In this document: positions 3,150-63,474 of the stretch, piece after piece
How the letters are laid out: each line of letters opens with the position of its first letter
Position numbering within the stretch: the first letter of the stretch is position 1
Assembly (NCBI GenBank): GCA_017402845.1
Contig: JAFPLH010000028.1
Location: 38,430 to 102,429, forward strand
Source: Clostridia bacterium
GTDB taxonomy: Bacteria; Bacillota; Clostridia; Oscillospirales; Acutalibacteraceae
Length of the DNA stretch: 64,000 nucleotides
Direction: 5' to 3'
Made by a program: the position numbers and the translations under genes
Notes under the pieces: model-generated
Told to the model about the DNA's origin: nothing
What the model saw: only the letters and a program-made list of their open reading frames with translations
The model's database searches: none

Positions 3150-3254
3150 TACACCTCCAAAAAAGCTTTTAGCACATCAGTAATTATTCACTTGAATTAT
3201 ATAATATACCAAAAATTAAAAATTGTAAAGCAAATAAAAAAATTTTTACATTTA

Positions 3255-3416
3255 GGGCACCTCTAAAAACCTCGCACCACCAATCTGCGCCGTATCTTCA
3301 GCCGTCATATTGCATAAAAATTCTTGACATACGTCAGTATGCCGGCGATTTTGTTGTGCAACCTCCCGACTAAATCTACGGCACATCTGAACGACGGCAG
3401 GTTTTTAGAGATGCCC
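3255..3416 (-). mobile_element. 162-bp hairpin MITE, family 1, copy A (TSD TTTA/TTTA at 3251-3254 and 3417-3420)
   Basis: Near-identical to 20382-20543, 51079-51240 and 55974-56137. It has long imperfect inverted arms and a flanking perfect 4-bp direct repeat. It sits in the intergenic gap between two minus-strand genes. Confidence 0.85.
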
Positions 3417-3440
3417 TTTACACAATAAACCTGCATATAG

Positions 3441-3472
3441 AAAAAATGCGGCAGCACAATAATGCCGCCGCA
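3441..3472 (-). terminator. Rho-independent terminator downstream of the Met-gamma-lyase-family gene
   Basis: On the minus strand the sequence reads GCGGCGGCAttattgtgcTGCCGCA followed by TTTTTT. Confidence 0.7.
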
Positions 3473-7043: not shown

Positions 7044-7107
7044 ATATTTCACTTCCTTGAGAGCATATTTATGGCAACACCGCACACATTCAGACGATCG
7101 AACTGTG

Positions 7108-7143
7108 TACTCAGACCGCAGGACGTGATTTATTCAGTGTTTC
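7108..7143 (+). repeat. solo right-end fragment of the family-2 hairpin element
   Basis: CTCAGACCGCAGGACGTGATTTATTCAGTGTTTCC matches the right arm of 34477-34646 (CTCAGTCCACAGGACGTGATTTATTCAGTGGTTCC). Confidence 0.7.
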
Positions 7144-7150
7144 CTTAAAT

Positions 7151-7245: not shown

Positions 7246-7282
7246 GTAATCATTCAATTATTTCATTGTTATCAGATATACC

Positions 7283-7316
7283 GTAGATTTAGCCGGCAGG
7301 TTCCTTAGAGATACCC
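7283..7316. repeat. rearranged 34-bp remnant of the family-1 hairpin MITE
   Basis: CCGTAGATTTAGCCGGCAGG matches an internal left-arm segment. It is fused to TTCCTTAGAGATACCC, which matches the inverted element terminus (TTTTTAGAGATGCCC). It abuts the pdp stop codon. Confidence 0.6.
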
Positions 7317-7317
7317 A

Positions 7318-8619
7318 TTATTGAATTATTTTGTATATAAGCGGTTTCGGCTGCGGTTTTTCCTCAGAAAACTCTACTGCCGACAAAAACTGCGCCTTTG
7401 CACCGTCAAGCTTTTCGGGCGTGTTGGTATAAAGCTTTGCAAGAATTTCGCCTTTATTGACATGATCTCCCGTTTTTCTGCACAACTCAATACCTGCACT
7501 GTGGTCTATACTGTCTTCTTTTTTCTCTCTGCCTGCGCCTAACGCATTTGCAGCAAGACCGATAGCTTCACAATTCATATCTGAAATAAATCCTTCACAC
7601 TCCGATATTACATCAAAACAAAACTCAGCTTTTTTAAACTTTGACGTATCAATGAGATATGAAGCGTCACCGCCCTGTGCGGAAACTATTTCTTTCAGCT
7701 TTTCAAATGCTTTTCCGCTTTCAACTGCCTGCTTTGCAAGTATACGACATTCCTCAACAGTCTTTGAAGATGTAAGAGAATACATATTTGCAGCAAGCTC
7801 AATACACAGCTCGTAAAGATCGCCCTTCTGTTCATTTTTAAGTACACTTACCGCTTCGATAATTTCAAGAGTGTTTCCTACCATAAAACCAAGCGGAATA
7901 TCCATATCGGTAATAAGTGCAGTTATCCTTTTACCGCACAGCTTTCCTATGCGGATCATGGACTCGGCAAGCTTCTGAGCGTCGTCTGTGTTCTTCATAA
8001 AAGCGCCGCTGCCGCATTTAACGTCGAGTATGATACAATCGCTGCCAGACGCTATTTTTTTACTCATAATACTTGACGTGATCAGCGGTACACTTTCAAC
8101 CGTTGCAGTAACGTCACGCAATGCATAAAGCTTTTTGTCTGCTGCTGCAATATTTTTGCTTTGACCTATCATTGCAGCTCCTGTTTTATTGATAATATCA
8201 ATAAATTCATCAGGATCTACTGCTGTTCTGAATCCCGGAATAGATTCAAGCTTATCAACAGTACCGCCTGTATGACCAAGCGCTCTGCCGCTCATTTTTG
8301 CCGCATGAGCTCCCAAAGCCGCGGCGATAGGTACTACGATAACAGTAGTTTTATCTCCTACTCCGCCTGTTGAGTGTTTATCAACTGTCAAGCCATTAAC
8401 AGTTGACAGATCAACTCTCTCTCCGGAATCTGCCATAGCAAGAGTCAGATCGGTAGTTTCACGGTCTGTCATACCGTTCAGAAAAACAGCCATAAGCAGT
8501 GCGGACGCCTGATAATCAGCGATCGTACCGTCTGTAACACCCTTTACAAAATATTCTATCTCCTGCTGCGTAAGCTCTTTTCTGTCTCTTTTTTTTGCGA
8601 TAATATCAATAATATCCAT
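7318..8619 (-). CDS. pdp: pyrimidine-nucleoside (thymidine) phosphorylase
   Basis: Contains DKHSTGGVGD, SGRALGHTGGT and the rest of the family pattern. The start was set at MDIIDII (AGGAG plus 8 nt), not at the GTG 9 nt upstream. Confidence 0.9.
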   Translation of the reverse strand: MDIIDIIAKKRDRKELTQQEIEYFVKGVTDGTIADYQASALLMAVFLNGMTDRETTDLTLAMADSGERVDLSTVNGLTVDKHSTGGVGDKTTVIVVPIAAALGAHAAKMSGRALGHTGGTVDKLESIPGFRTAVDPDEFIDIINKTGAAMIGQSKNIAAADKKLYALRDVTATVESVPLITSSIMSKKIASGSDCIILDVKCGSGAFMKNTDDAQKLAESMIRIGKLCGKRITALITDMDIPLGFMVGNTLEIIEAVSVLKNEQKGDLYELCIELAANMYSLTSSKTVEECRILAKQAVESGKAFEKLKEIVSAQGGDASYLIDTSKFKKAEFCFDVISECEGFISDMNCEAIGLAANALGAGREKKEDSIDHSAGIELCRKTGDHVNKGEILAKLYTNTPEKLDGAKAQFLSAVEFSEEKPQPKPLIYKIIQ

Positions 8620-18398: not shown

Positions 18399-20213
18399 TT
18401 ATTCATTTAGTTTGAATACATAGTAATTATTCTTTATATCATACGGAGTATTTAACTCCAAAAGTTTTTCTTTGGTCTTGTTATTATTAACAAGCGTTTT
18501 ATACAGCTCCATTTGCTGTACGTTTGTAGTATAGTACGACGACTCAGAGTTTATATCACGAATAACATAAACTGCTTTTTCTGCCTGATCTACCGTTTCG
18601 GGTATTCCTATATGTATATTGCCGTAGGTCATTACCTTGCTGTCTATGCTTTCAACTTCACTTTGTATAACGCTCGGCTCAACCCTCAGTCCGTAAAGAG
18701 TGATAAGACCTGCGTTATACGTTGCAGTATAATCTACATATATCTGTGAATCTGCGTATTCTTCATTTCGGAAGGTCTCGCACAGTTCAAGAAGATCGTA
18801 ATCAAAGTATGCAAGCGCTTTGTTCTGTTCGGTGAAGCTTCCGCTGAATAAATAGTACGTATAACCGCAGAAATTTGCAAGATATAATAGCGCTGCGAAA
18901 AAGCAAATCAAATAACTGCGATGTTCCCACAGCTTTGAAAACATATAAGCCAGCAGAAGCGCAAATGCAAAATACACGGCGTTATATCTGTAAATAGCCA
19001 ACTGCTCCAAAAGAGTCATAGGGTACATAACTGCTAACATATAAAACAGCACTATAAGCTCAAAGCTGAACTCTTTTTTCTTTACTATATTGTATACTGT
19101 ACTAAACAGCATAAATACAAAACCTAAAAACAGGAGTATTTGAGAAACACTTATCTTGTAATGAGAGAAATGAAGTACATTCTGATAGAATACTCCGTAT
19201 TTATCGTCTGCCATAAAATCGTATTGATCGCAGCTTGTAAGTGTGTTTATGTTTTTGATTATCTCTTTGATCGAAAGCGACTGCCACCCTATCTCTGATA
19301 AACGACCGGCAGACGCATTTGTAAACGTGATACAGCCTATCTTGAATTCGGGCAGTATTCCTACCACAACCAACAAATACAATAGTATGGGTACTGATAC
19401 AACAATAGCACTAAAGAACATTATGCCTGTTTGCTTAATTGTTATTTCCTTTTTGATGAGAGCGTATATTAAAGCCAACACTAAGAAAACAGGCATCATC
19501 ATAACAGCGAGAATGTATGAGTACATACTGATACCAAACATAATTCCGCTTATGAGTGCATATTTGTTTTTTCCTGTTTTTATTAGTCTGACAAAAAAGT
19601 ATAAAAACATTACAAACATAGGCAGCATTGCATTACAGTCAAATGCCCATCGTTCGGACATTATGAAAAACGGCATTATATCTATCACGGCTGCCGTAAT
19701 AACAGCGCACTTTGCGCCAAACATTTCGTATGCGGTCTTAGTGCCGAATATCAGAAGAAGCAAGCCGAAAAATACAGATACCACACGCAGAGTAAACACA
19801 CTGTATCCGAATATTTTTGAAAGTAAAAACGCTATATATACATACAGGCTTGACTGACCTGAACCTGCATTATTAAAATATACAGGAAAACTCACTCCGT
19901 AACGGTCTGTACCAAACTGAGAAAGCGTCCAGGTATTATATCCCATTGAAATTTCATCAATATGCAGTCCCTTTGGTAAAATCGTTATCTGTACAAGTCT
20001 TGTAAACAAAAAGACTATACCTATTACGGTAAAATAGAGCCAGTAGGCTTTATTCTCCGAAATACTCTTTTTCAGCGCCTCAATGCCTTTTAGTTCTTCT
20101 GCGTTCTGATCTTTCGTTTTGGCTGTTTCTTTTGGTACTGAATTATTTGCGTTTGTAGCTTTTGTGCTATTACCTGTTTTGCTGCTGCGTTTTCCGGTCT
20201 TTGACTTTGCCAT
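18399..20213 (-). CDS. GT-C fold glycosyltransferase (ArnT/PMT, GT39/83-like) membrane protein
   Basis: Lys/Thr-rich N-terminal tail, about 12 TM segments, an early HIDEISMGYN loop typical of ArnT/PMT_2, and a C-terminal soluble domain. The start was set at MAKSKTGKR. The ORF track extension to 20444 reads into the MITE. Confidence 0.75.
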   Translation of the reverse strand: MAKSKTGKRSSKTGNSTKATNANNSVPKETAKTKDQNAEELKGIEALKKSISENKAYWLYFTVIGIVFLFTRLVQITILPKGLHIDEISMGYNTWTLSQFGTDRYGVSFPVYFNNAGSGQSSLYVYIAFLLSKIFGYSVFTLRVVSVFFGLLLLIFGTKTAYEMFGAKCAVITAAVIDIMPFFIMSERWAFDCNAMLPMFVMFLYFFVRLIKTGKNKYALISGIMFGISMYSYILAVMMMPVFLVLALIYALIKKEITIKQTGIMFFSAIVVSVPILLYLLVVVGILPEFKIGCITFTNASAGRLSEIGWQSLSIKEIIKNINTLTSCDQYDFMADDKYGVFYQNVLHFSHYKISVSQILLFLGFVFMLFSTVYNIVKKKEFSFELIVLFYMLAVMYPMTLLEQLAIYRYNAVYFAFALLLAYMFSKLWEHRSYLICFFAALLYLANFCGYTYYLFSGSFTEQNKALAYFDYDLLELCETFRNEEYADSQIYVDYTATYNAGLITLYGLRVEPSVIQSEVESIDSKVMTYGNIHIGIPETVDQAEKAVYVIRDINSESSYYTTNVQQMELYKTLVNNNKTKEKLLELNTPYDIKNNYYVFKLNE

Positions 20214-20381
20214 ATCATTATCACCCCGATAATTATAGTATATCATAATAATAATGGTATTGTCCACAATTAATACTGTTCCGATATAGAATTCAGATGA
20301 TCTTTTACTGAACAACGATTTCAATATACTATCAGAAAACACTACCGCCTGCATACACAACAGGCGGTGAAAAAGTATAAA

Positions 20382-20543
20382 GGACACCTCTAAAAACCTC
20401 ACGCCGCCCATCTGCACCGTATCTTCAGCCGTCATATTGCACAAAAAATCTTGACATACGTCAGTATGCCGGCGATTTTAAAGTGCCGTCTGCCAACTAA
20501 ATCTACGGCACATCTGAACGACGGCAGGTTTTTAGAGATGCCC
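20382..20543 (-). mobile_element. 162-bp hairpin MITE, family 1, copy B (TSD TAAA/TAAA at 20378-20381 and 20544-20547)
   Basis: Full-length copy. The 4-bp flanking duplication is perfect. It lies between the Clp-like gene stop and the GT-C gene start. Confidence 0.9.
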
Positions 20544-20553
20544 TAAATCGTAA

Positions 20554-34430: not shown

Positions 34431-34476
34431 ATTTTACCTCATTTGACACTTCATTCAGGATATAATTATTATCAAG

Positions 34477-34646
34477 GGAAACACTGATTAAATCGAGTGC
34501 CCATATCGCTTAGTATTTTTTCAGGCAAATTGTGCGAAAATCACGCCGGAATACTGACGTATTTCAAGTGATTTGAGTGCAATTTGACAAAAAAGGCAAG
34601 CAAGATGGGTGCTCAGTCCACAGGACGTGATTTATTCAGTGGTTCC
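34477..34646 (+). mobile_element. 170-bp hairpin MITE, family 2 (TSD CAAG/CAAG at 34473-34476 and 34647-34650)
   Basis: The TIRs are GGAAACACTGATTAAATC and GGAACCACTGAATAAATC (reverse complement of the right end). The arms form a long imperfect hairpin. The apical ~45 nt (GGAATACTGACGTATTTCAAG...GTGCAAT) is shared with family 1. Confidence 0.75.
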
Positions 34647-34658
34647 CAAGAAAGGAAG

Positions 34659-51004: not shown

Positions 51005-51078
51005 CATAAAAACCACCCTTAAAAATAGTATTTTATACACATTATATCACGTTCCATTTTAAAATACAATTTTTTTAA

Positions 51079-51240
51079 GGGCATCTCTAAAACCCTGCCG
51101 TCGTTCAGATGTGCCGTAGATTTAGTCGGCAGGCTGCACAATAAAATCGCTGGCATACTGACGTATGTCAAGATTTTTTGTGCAAGATGACGGCTAAAGA
51201 TACGGTGCAGATGGGCGGCGTGAGGTTTTTAGAGGTGTCC
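51079..51240 (+). mobile_element. 162-bp hairpin MITE, family 1, copy C (TSD TTAA/TTAA at 51075-51078 and 51241-51244)
   Basis: Full-length copy in the opposite orientation to copies A and B, with a perfect 4-bp duplication. Confidence 0.9.
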
Positions 51241-51246
51241 TTAAAT

Positions 51247-51306: not shown

Positions 51307-51507
51307 TTACTTTACTGATTCCTCGTAGCTCTCGATCATTCTCTTTACCATCTGACCGCCGACAGAACCTGCCTGACGTGATGTGAGATCGCCGTTGTAG
51401 CCCTCTTTGAGATCAACACCTACCTCACTTGCACACTCCATTTTAAACTTATCCATAGCCTCTCTGGCTTCGGGAACATTAAGCTTGTTGTTATTCTTTG
51501 CTGACAT
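51307..51507 (-). CDS. alpha/beta-type small acid-soluble spore protein
   Basis: MSAKNNNKLNVPEAREAMDKFKMECASEVGV...LTSRQAGSVGGQMVKRMIE. 66 aa, with AGGAGAA RBS. The upstream extension in the ORF track was rejected. Confidence 0.9.
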   Translation of the reverse strand: MSAKNNNKLNVPEAREAMDKFKMECASEVGVDLKEGYNGDLTSRQAGSVGGQMVKRMIESYEESVK

Positions 51508-55956: not shown

Positions 55957-55973
55957 GCAAAAAAACGAATAAA

Positions 55974-56137
55974 GGGCATCTCTAAAGAACCTGCCGTCGT
56001 TCAGATGTGCCGTAGATTTAGTCGGCAGATTGTACAAGAAATTTGCAGGAATACTAACGTATTTCAAGAATTTATTGTGCAATATGACGGCTGATGATAC
56101 GGTGCAGATGGACGGCGTGAGGTTTTTTGAGGTGCCC
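55974..56137 (+). mobile_element. 164-bp hairpin MITE, family 1, copy D (TSD TAAA/TAAA at 55970-55973 and 56138-56141)
   Basis: The most diverged full copy. Its apical hairpin carries the AATAC/GTATT variant that is also seen in family 2. Confidence 0.85.
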
Positions 56138-56233
56138 TAAAGCTTTCGCTCAAGCCTTTTTCAACAATTTGACAAAAAATTTCAGAGATGTTCTTTACTC
56201 ATTCAAAAGCTGCGGCTAATTGCTAATTGCTAC

Positions 56234-62019: not shown

Positions 62020-63474
62020 ATGAAAGAAAAATTTGCAGCCGCTGCAACTGCAATAATGCTGATCTGCTCACAGCAAACTGTATCAGCTTCTACACATACA
62101 CTCATTCTGGGTGACGTAAATCTGGACGGCAGGGTTACTGCGTTTGATTCTTTACTCGTTCAGCGTCATGTTATCAATATGTTACACCTTGAGGGCGAAA
62201 GGCTTATCGCTGCCGATATTAATCAGACAGGTATGATCTCAAATATTGACGCTATGGAAATTCTCAGAACTTCCATTAAACTCTTGCCCGTTAAAACTAT
62301 CGAAATCGAAGATGTCGTTTCCGATACCGATAAAGAAAGCGACACTGACACTTTTACTGATGATACTACTGATACTACTGATACACCCGATATAGTCATA
62401 ATCGAAAGCGATACTGACACACTTTCTGAGTACGACACAGAAAATGATACCGACACGCTGTCAGAATACGACACAGAAAATGATACCGATACGCTGTCAG
62501 AATACGACACAGAAAATGATACCGACACACAATCCGATAACGATACGGAGAACGATCCCGAAACCGATACAGATAATGACACCGATACCGACGAATACAG
62601 CGATAATATGGGTATTCCCTACTCTATGACGCTTAACTGCGGTGACAGAGTTTATCTTGAACCGGATTATAATGGGTGGTGTTCTTTTTATGCTGACGGT
62701 ACAAGAGCTTCTGACGATCCGAGCTGTACAGTACTTGAAGTATACCAATCGGGAATGATAAAGGGTTATCACACCGGCACAAGCGTTGTTACCGTTGAGG
62801 CTTCTAACGGTGAAAAAGCCTATTGCAAGGTAACAGTTAAACACAATATGACAGAAAGTTATATTCATGTTGGAGATCACAAGCTTAAAGTAACTAAAAA
62901 AATAATGACCGCAAACGACTGCTACAACGAAGCTGACGATTTTGACGTTATCAAAGGACTTATGGTACACTCTACCGCAGAACCGGGAAAAAATGCTGCT
63001 TTCTGGTATGACGCATGGAATCGCCCCGAAACTCCGGCGGCAGTTCATGCTTTTCTGGATAACGAGGAGGTTTGTCAATATCTGCCATATGAACTGCAGG
63101 GCTGGCACGCCGGCAGCTCGGCAAATAGAACACATCTTGATTTCGAGATCTGCGAACCTGCCGGCTTTAATTACGACGAAAACTGGGAAATTGAAAACTA
63201 TGATGTAGAAAAGCAACAGCCTTATTTTGATAAAATCTGGGAAAATGCCACTGTATATTCTGCATATTTATGCTATATTTCAGATCTTGACGCAAGTGAT
63301 ATCATCAGCCACAACGAGGGCGGCAAAATTGGTATTGCAACAGATCATAAGGATCCCGATCACTGGTTTATCAAACATAATAAAACTATGGACGATTTCA
63401 GACATGATGTAGAACAGCTTCTTAAAGAAGATATATATATAACAGACGAGGTAATTGTCAGAGAATTACCTTAA
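62020..63474 (+). CDS. secreted dockerin-containing N-acetylmuramoyl-L-alanine amidase (Amidase_2/PGRP-type) with a D/T-rich repeat linker and an Ig-like module
   Basis: Signal peptide, then a type-I dockerin duplicated Ca-loop (GDVNLDGRVTAFD / ADINQTGMISNID). Next come 3x DTDTLSEYDTEN, a Big_2-like segment (VTVEASNGEKAYCKVTV), and an amidase region (VHSTAEPG, GWHAGSSANRTHLDFEICEP, SHNEG..DHKDPDHW). Confidence 0.75.
   Translation: MKEKFAAAATAIMLICSQQTVSASTHTLILGDVNLDGRVTAFDSLLVQRHVINMLHLEGERLIAADINQTGMISNIDAMEILRTSIKLLPVKTIEIEDVVSDTDKESDTDTFTDDTTDTTDTPDIVIIESDTDTLSEYDTENDTDTLSEYDTENDTDTLSEYDTENDTDTQSDNDTENDPETDTDNDTDTDEYSDNMGIPYSMTLNCGDRVYLEPDYNGWCSFYADGTRASDDPSCTVLEVYQSGMIKGYHTGTSVVTVEASNGEKAYCKVTVKHNMTESYIHVGDHKLKVTKKIMTANDCYNEADDFDVIKGLMVHSTAEPGKNAAFWYDAWNRPETPAAVHAFLDNEEVCQYLPYELQGWHAGSSANRTHLDFEICEPAGFNYDENWEIENYDVEKQQPYFDKIWENATVYSAYLCYISDLDASDIISHNEGGKIGIATDHKDPDHWFIKHNKTMDDFRHDVEQLLKEDIYITDEVIVRELP
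62410..62517 (+). repeat. 3 x 36-bp in-frame tandem repeat (DTDTLSEYDTEN)
   Basis: The units are 62410-62445, 62446-62481 and 62482-62517, with 1-5 differences between them. Degenerate D/T-rich units flank them. Confidence 0.9.

Follow-up and report, generated by a model that had tools for sequence, protein, structure and literature searches.

The Correia elements (CREE) of Neisseria generate a TA duplication and contain an IHF site, and promoters arise at their ends. They are described as MITEs that lie between genes, measure about 100-160 bp and have inverted ends around a conserved core; they are co-transcribed with neighbouring genes, and RNase III binds to the hairpins of their RNA, with either cleavage or protection as the result (PMC2649163). 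IS5-related MITEs have been described from Porphyromonas gingivalis (BrickBuilt, MITEPgRS, MITE293 and MITE700) and from Neisseria meningitidis (ATR, with ISNme1 as the proposed parent) (PMC4596501). The elements of this second group resemble the repeats described here in being short and non-coding, in having IS5-type inverted ends and in that a parent was proposed from the ends, but they have unrelated ends (GAGACCTTTGCA...), their duplications are variable or absent, and their hosts belong to other phyla; BrickBuilt, unlike our repeats, also holds a minisatellite (PMC4596501). The sequences of CREE and of our repeats are unrelated.

The DNA analysed here, called the window in the following, is the whole stretch of 64,000 nucleotides (G+C content 41%) from a metagenome-assembled genome (MAG) of an uncultured rumen Acutalibacteraceae; exact protein matches to it were found in the rumen Acutalibacteraceae/Clostridia MAG GCA_036342795.1. 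Its dispersed repeats are a previously undescribed family of a well-known kind, the IS5-family MITE, and no such MITE had been described before in the rumen Clostridia species that hosts them. We consider it very probable that the repeats are non-coding MITEs which were mobilised in trans by an IS1194-like IS5-family DDE transposase, and that the insertions are old and fixed. To locate the copies, repeat finding and multiple alignment were combined with an nhmmer profile made from them. These approaches agreed on the four full copies, two in each orientation, that an initial annotation made from the sequence had placed at the following positions (the duplicated tetranucleotides are read on the + strand):

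3255..3416, + strand: MITE copy 1, 162 bp, with TTTA at 3251-3254 and 3417-3420; neighbours are a methionine-gamma-lyase family gene, then an AI-2E transporter (start 3149)
20382..20543, + strand: MITE copy 2, 162 bp, with TAAA at 20378-20381 and 20544-20547; neighbours are a Clp-type AAA+ ATPase gene (stop 20554), then a PMT_2 glycosyltransferase
51079..51240, - strand: MITE copy 3, 162 bp, with TTAA at 51075-51078 and 51241-51244; neighbours are a SASP gene (51307-51507, - strand), then a CinA gene (- strand)
55974..56137, - strand: MITE copy 4, 164 bp, with TAAA at 55970-55973 and 56138-56141; neighbours are a gene for an FAD-dependent protein (stop 55956), then dihydroorotase, upstream of which the copy lies

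The copies had been called near-identical. They clearly belong to one family, with nhmmer E-values of 1e-54 to 1e-58 for the four full copies against the profile built from them, but at pairwise identities of 83-94% the wording was somewhat generous; copy 4 is the most diverged. As had been reported, an exact direct repeat of four A/T bases flanks every copy. Since the chance of an exact match of all four bases in such A/T-rich flanks is about 1-3% per copy, duplications at all four copies are far beyond chance. Both ends of the element carry GGRCAYCTCTAAAAACCT in inverted orientation as terminal inverted repeats, the outer 16-18 nt being GGRCAYCTCTAAAAACC at each end, and the inverted ends had been quoted correctly. 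The whole element is an imperfect palindrome over its entire length (DNA fold -29.6 kcal/mol, z-score -5.3). Inverted termini and a 4-bp target-site duplication, which together had been read as the footprint of insertion by a DDE transposase, are both present at all four copies.

MITEs are expected to be short (about 50-500 bp) and non-coding, to have a target-site duplication of fixed length, and to occur as dispersed copies whose occupancy differs among related genomes. Our repeats measure 162-164 bp, are accompanied by a duplication of 4 bp at each of the four sites, and are dispersed in the window and differ in occupancy between related genomes, as described below. A length of 162 bp leaves no room for a transposase gene, and the element has none. 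The earlier statement that the window encodes no transposase holds for the IS5 type, which neither tblastn nor a six-frame profile search detected in the window. In total, the examination covered the four copies in 64 kb together with two full and several partial copies from elsewhere.

All four copies sit between genes that share one direction. Copy 1 is located between the start of the AI-2E transporter gene and a terminator-like hairpin of the methionine-gamma-lyase-family gene (3447-3472, - strand). Copy 2 lies 10 nt past the stop codon of the Clp-type AAA+ ATPase gene and ahead of a terminator-like hairpin (20344-20368, - strand); because of this placement between stop codon and hairpin, it is probably transcribed as part of the 3' UTR of the ATPase. 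Copy 4 begins 17 nt past the stop codon of the gene for the FAD-dependent protein. A mechanically called ORF (18399..20444) overlaps copy 2, but this ORF has a TTG start, and its true start is most likely the ATG at 20213, which follows a GGGGTGA ribosome-binding site. With this likelier start the overlap disappears, and the description of the copies as intergenic can be retained. Promoter and terminator scans returned weak consensus matches only, which were not clearly above the shuffled expectation.

Exact-protein look-ups showed that the same loci recur in several independent rumen and gut assemblies. For the same species, five window proteins (exact matches) and the near-identical cluster member P0123 were used. 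Sites 1, 3 and 4 were filled in every same-species contig sampled (about 20 contigs), and no presence/absence polymorphism was seen among these. Many of the same-species contigs end inside the element, as is expected of a multicopy repeat. This indirectly supports the high genomic copy number that the initial annotation had deduced from the density of copies; on the other side, no further copy was found in about 18 kb past the two window ends. The look-ups also bear on the idea that the family results from chance similarity, from an assembly artefact, or from full-length insertion sequences that decayed independently. Its sole attraction is that the source is a metagenome-assembled genome. The same filled loci are found in independent assemblies from several studies and samples, the nhmmer E-values given above speak against chance, and all copies have the same internal sequence, which independent deletions would not give; we therefore assign this explanation a negligible probability.

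A sister species was identified in which the methionine-gamma-lyase-family protein is 94% and the FAD-dependent protein 86% identical to that of the window. At the site of copy 1, the intergenic spacer is 153 nt in the sister species versus 330 nt in the window. The sister-species sequence reads ...ACG TAAA AATGTAAAATATTTTTAATTTGC..., with a single TAAA, and the reverse-complemented window sequence reads ...GTG TAAA (162-bp element) TAAA TGTAAAAATTTTTTTATTTGC..., with a right flank that aligns well. The sister species thus has an empty site in which the duplicated tetranucleotide occurs once; sites of this kind are what the initial annotation had proposed to look for in relatives of the host. 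The site of copy 4 is also without the element in the sister-species contig L142, where the flank is too diverged for a base-precise comparison, and no family member was found in any sister-species locus examined. As two sites are without the element in the sister species and the sites sampled within the species are filled, the insertions arose after the split from the nearest sampled sister species and are by now fixed in the rumen host. Fixation in the species, together with the identity of only 83-94% between copies, points to an old burst of transposition rather than to ongoing activity.

In the ISfinder classification, the IS5 group is characterized by GG or GA ends and a 4-bp duplication. 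A link to this group had been offered as a hypothesis in the initial annotation, and it can now be examined with the terminus of the element. One genome per species was scanned for AGGTTTTTAGAGRTGYCC, which yielded at least 115 stretches, where about 70 would be expected by chance according to our own estimate. Among the matches listed, the distribution is nonrandom: nearly all follow A/T-rich sequence whose last base is A, many occur as inverted pairs at a distance of 40-270 bp, many genomes have several matches, and many matches lie at contig ends. The interior encodes a transposase in at least nine organisms among the matches listed. Similarity between different terminus-bearing elements ends right after nt 18, so that the 18-mer is best understood as a common transposon terminus on many unrelated interiors. 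At 131 distinct termini from many phyla among the matches listed, the flanking 4 nt are strongly A/T (T in 63% at position -4, A in 68% at position -1), and the commonest flanking 4-mers are TTAA, ATAA, TATA, TTTA, TTAT and TAAA.

A metagenome scan with a sub-terminal pattern gave 14 stretches, 2 of which were true family members. Because this number was so small, the wider set of elements sharing the terminus was used for a survey of duplications. Exact 4-bp duplications were present in 16 of 39 further miniature elements with the terminus from other genomes, among the matches listed. A lack of duplicated flanking 4-mers in a larger set had been named in the initial annotation as grounds for refutation, and this was not the outcome.

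Several observations on the distribution of the terminus were made along with this survey. Among the matches listed, conservation of GGRCAYCTCTAAAAACCT extends over Bacteroidota, Bacillota, Pseudomonadota, Spirochaetota, Nitrospinota and other phyla, and dozens of unrelated miniature elements, 86-270 bp in size, have it at their boundaries (e.g. at loci L003, L037, L040, L059 and L090). The transposases associated with this conserved terminus are only about 38-53% identical to each other. Mini-palindromes of 40 bp, which consist of two termini and a 4-nt loop (GGGCATCTCTAAAAACCTTGTTGGATTTTTAGAGATGCCC), recur in several Treponema genomes, T. putidum among them:

L020, 3377-3416: Treponema mini-palindrome
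L044, 3587-3626: Treponema mini-palindrome
L054, 1005-1044: Treponema mini-palindrome
L103, 1195-1234: Treponema mini-palindrome

The 18-nt terminus flanks genes for transposases of the NF033581 type at L007, L036, L041 and other loci. The clearest example, a 1309-bp element from an Amylibacter MAG, encodes a 374-aa transposase with the Pfam domains DUF772 and DDE_Tnp_1, which scores 186 bits against NCBIfam NF033581 (IS5 family; score cutoff 140 bits), and four of five copies of this element have exact 4-bp duplications (AACT, AACT, ATCT and AGCT). In the Amylibacter MAG CBDBLJ01 (L007, L017, L045, L105, L108 and L109) there are at least eight matches to the identical transposase, two of them 845 bp apart; a recent and active expansion of the 1309-bp IS5-family element in this genome is suggested.

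The nearest curated relatives, as determined by tblastn against annotated plasmids, are IS1169, IS1168 and IS1194. IS1194 starts with GGGCACCTCTAAAAAC and ends in ...TTAGAGGTGCCC (paired ends GGGCACCTCTAAAAAC / GGGCACCTCTAATAAG); in a Lactococcus plasmid, TTTA is followed by GGGCACCTCTAAAAACGT at its start, and ...TTATTAGAGGTGCCC is followed by TATA at its end. The left end of IS1194 and the terminus of the window MITE are identical over 16 nt, and both start with GG. Unlike IS1194, the MITE is 162 bp long, has no transposase and shows no similarity past about 16-18 nt, and its host is an uncultured rumen Acutalibacteraceae, whereas the hosts of the IS1194/IS1169 group are Lactobacillales or Bacteroides. 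In the regions flanking the IS1169 gene, no similar terminus was seen. The IS1194 transposase scores 295 bits against NF033581, within the range of 290-305 bits obtained for the transposases of IS1194, IS1169 and P0241. The P0241 element, from gut or rumen, is 1255 bp long (transposase 290 bits), has exact duplications of TACT and TTCA, and ends in GGGAACCTCTAAAAATT, a terminus that is related but not identical to that of the MITE.

The ends of the window MITE match those of elements encoding NF033581 transposases, IS1194 included, and its 4-bp duplications correspond to those that the full-length relatives sharing the terminus make at A/T-rich targets. The suggested link to IS5 has in this way gained substance, and these comparisons support an ancestry of the MITE in the IS1194-like lineage of the IS5 family. 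We infer that an IS1194-like DDE transposase, encoded elsewhere now or formerly, would bind both ends of the MITE and excise or copy it in trans. Integration would proceed via a 4-bp staggered cut at an A/T-rich tetranucleotide, and repair of the gaps would yield the 4-bp duplication.

A different route of dispersal has to be considered as well. REP elements are 20-40 nt long, have no target-site duplication and are tied to a Y1 transposase. If our repeats were of the REP/BIME type, or other palindromic intergenic repeats, they would have been spread by a RAYT (an IS200/IS605-type tyrosine transposase) or by recombination instead of by a DDE transposase. They are indeed intergenic, palindromic and G-rich on one strand, and the single-strand hairpin constraint discussed below would suit a mechanism that involves single-stranded DNA. 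However, a length of 162 bp, 4-bp duplications and termini identical to those of IS5-family DDE elements set the MITE apart from REP elements and make such an origin very improbable.

The autonomous partner that mobilisation by an IS1194-like transposase calls for was not found in the window or in 184 loci from other genomes or contigs. Among the matches listed from one genome per species, terminus-bearing insertion sequences came only from other taxa, and an nhmmer search with a profile of the MITE recovered no full-length insertion sequence whose similarity to it goes past the terminal ~18 nt. A search for homologues of the IS1194 transposase returned 6452 relatives, mostly on contigs of 1.1-1.5 kb, and singled out no parent. 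Viral contigs gave six matches, none of them informative, and a full-text literature search for the terminus string returned nothing relevant. Copies of the MITE itself are present in other Clostridia MAGs at L026, L131 and L132, and copies or close variants at L026, L055, L083, L002, L062 and L098. The variant at L055 (7141-7330, Ruminococcus MAG RUG11832) is chimeric: it has the left half of the family up to the central core, and its right part is unrelated sequence that ends in a different degenerate terminus (…GGTTTTCAGAGATGT).

Within the window, three relatives of the four copies (referred to as family 1 in this paragraph) were detected that are absent from the initial annotation:

34476..34648, - strand: diverged relative (family 2), 173 bp
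7272..7318, - strand: remnant or foldback fragment with the family-1-like terminus GGGTATCTCTAAGGAACCTGCCGGCTAAATCTACGG
7104..7145, - strand: solo family-2 terminus, GGAAACACTGAATAAATCACGTCCTGCGGTCTGAGTACACA, 88% identical to 34606-34646

The ends of family 2 are GGGAAACACTGATTAAATC and GGGAACCACTGAATAAATC, which agree with the family-1 inverted repeat at 16 of 24 positions, and reading the ends one base further inwards would make a CAAG duplication possible. Both families have the central core TTGAAATACGTCAGTATTCCGGCG in common. MITEs normally conserve their ends, and it is unusual that in family 2 conservation is stronger in the central core (GAAATACGTCAGTATTCCGGCG) than at the ends. The fragment at 7272-7318 lies directly 3' of the stop codon of the pyrimidine-nucleoside phosphorylase gene, and the solo terminus at 7104-7145 just upstream of the start of spoIIIAA. 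Both share the 232-nt spacer between these two genes and are present in all same-species contigs. A repeat of another sort is located at 62404-62583, where a 36-nt tandem repeat inside the ORF 62020-63474 encodes acidic 12-residue repeats of the type ENDTDTLSEYDT; an orthologue of this ORF has Dockerin_1 and Amidase_2 domains.

The two strands of the MITE differ in their predicted folding. The better-folding strand starts with GGGCAUCUC... (also given as GGGCATCTC); it corresponds to the - strand at copies 1 and 2 and to the + strand at copies 3 and 4. As RNA, it is predicted to form one rod-like hairpin, which contains 9-13 G·U pairs and has an energy between -78 and -98 kcal/mol. The complementary strand attains only -40 to -57 kcal/mol, with 0-4 G·U pairs; the RNA-fold z-score of copy 2 is -10.8. 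Nearly all mismatches in the arms of the hairpin are G·U or tandem G·A, its internal loops are mostly tandem GA/AG, the other strand shows C·A and pyrimidine mismatches, and G exceeds C on the favoured strand (skew +0.19 to +0.24). In eight aligned family members, which share ancestry and are not fully independent and whose structure was predicted on the favoured strand, this strand has G·U in one or more copies at 18 stem positions versus A·C at 2 (binomial p = 4e-4), one-sided changes number 15 from Watson-Crick to G·U and 2 from Watson-Crick to C·A, and compensatory double changes occur in 8 stem pairs. Because the copies lie in both genomic orientations, a mutation bias linked to replication or to host transcription is unlikely as the cause. 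The pattern hints at a constraint on the single-stranded form of the favoured strand, as RNA or possibly as DNA. With respect to the neighbouring genes, the favoured strand is sense in three of the four window copies (1, 2 and 4) and antisense in copy 3, or sense in four of five if L026 is included, where only the downstream gene is clear; neither proportion is significant, and at other loci the relation of the better-folding strand to the flanking genes was ambiguous or mixed.

These features raise the question of whether the repeats are primarily a structured RNA family (3' UTR stabilisers, terminators or small RNAs) that is kept for a host function, with transposon-like ends that would be incidental or ancestral. 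Such a family could account for the folding asymmetry between strands, for the G·U pairs, tandem G·A mismatches and compensatory changes, for the position of copy 2 between a stop codon and a terminator-like hairpin, for the central core, which folds into a weak terminator-like hairpin with a T run behind it, and for the fixation of the copies within the species. However, arrival of the copies by transposition is demonstrated by their exact 4-bp duplications and by the empty sister-species site, their ends match the termini of insertion sequences, and copy 3 is antisense to its neighbouring genes. In addition, Rfam gave no match at the gathering threshold for the whole window and none even at E<=1 for copy 2. 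We therefore regard an RNA family of this kind as improbable. Exaptation after insertion would be consistent with MITEs mobilised by an IS1194-like transposase and does not replace this explanation.

Since several copies occupy 3' UTR-like positions, a role at the RNA level may apply to the inserted elements. The MITE would then be under a constraint to form a long hairpin on one particular strand and might act as a stabiliser, a processing site or a terminator-like structure. That the family has been kept after insertion as a strand-specific structured RNA module in 3' UTRs and intergenic transcripts of rumen Acutalibacteraceae is a speculative reading of the predicted folds, to which we give a small though not trivial chance; in such a module, a rod-like hairpin with about 65 pairs, including G·U pairs and tandem G·A mismatches, would regulate the processing, the stability or the termination of mRNAs. 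By analogy, the Correia element is a plausible candidate for the closest functional analogue of the single-strand hairpin signature (PMC2649163). If the module existed, selection on RNA and not transposition would explain the co-variation of the arms and the restriction of mismatches almost entirely to one strand. The hairpin would then be one more bacterial example, like the Correia or ERIC elements, of a MITE recruited into transcripts, which would be an incremental rather than a conceptual advance.

For the genome at hand, the MITE family accounts for the assembly breaks at these positions and flags mechanically called ORFs that run into the repeat. Beyond it, IS1194-like elements of the IS5 family and their many miniature derivatives can be recognised by the 18-nt signature GGRCAYCTCTAAAAACC in Bacteroidota, Bacillota, Pseudomonadota, Spirochaetota and other phyla. 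The practical value of the finding lies in the annotation of uncultured rumen Clostridia.
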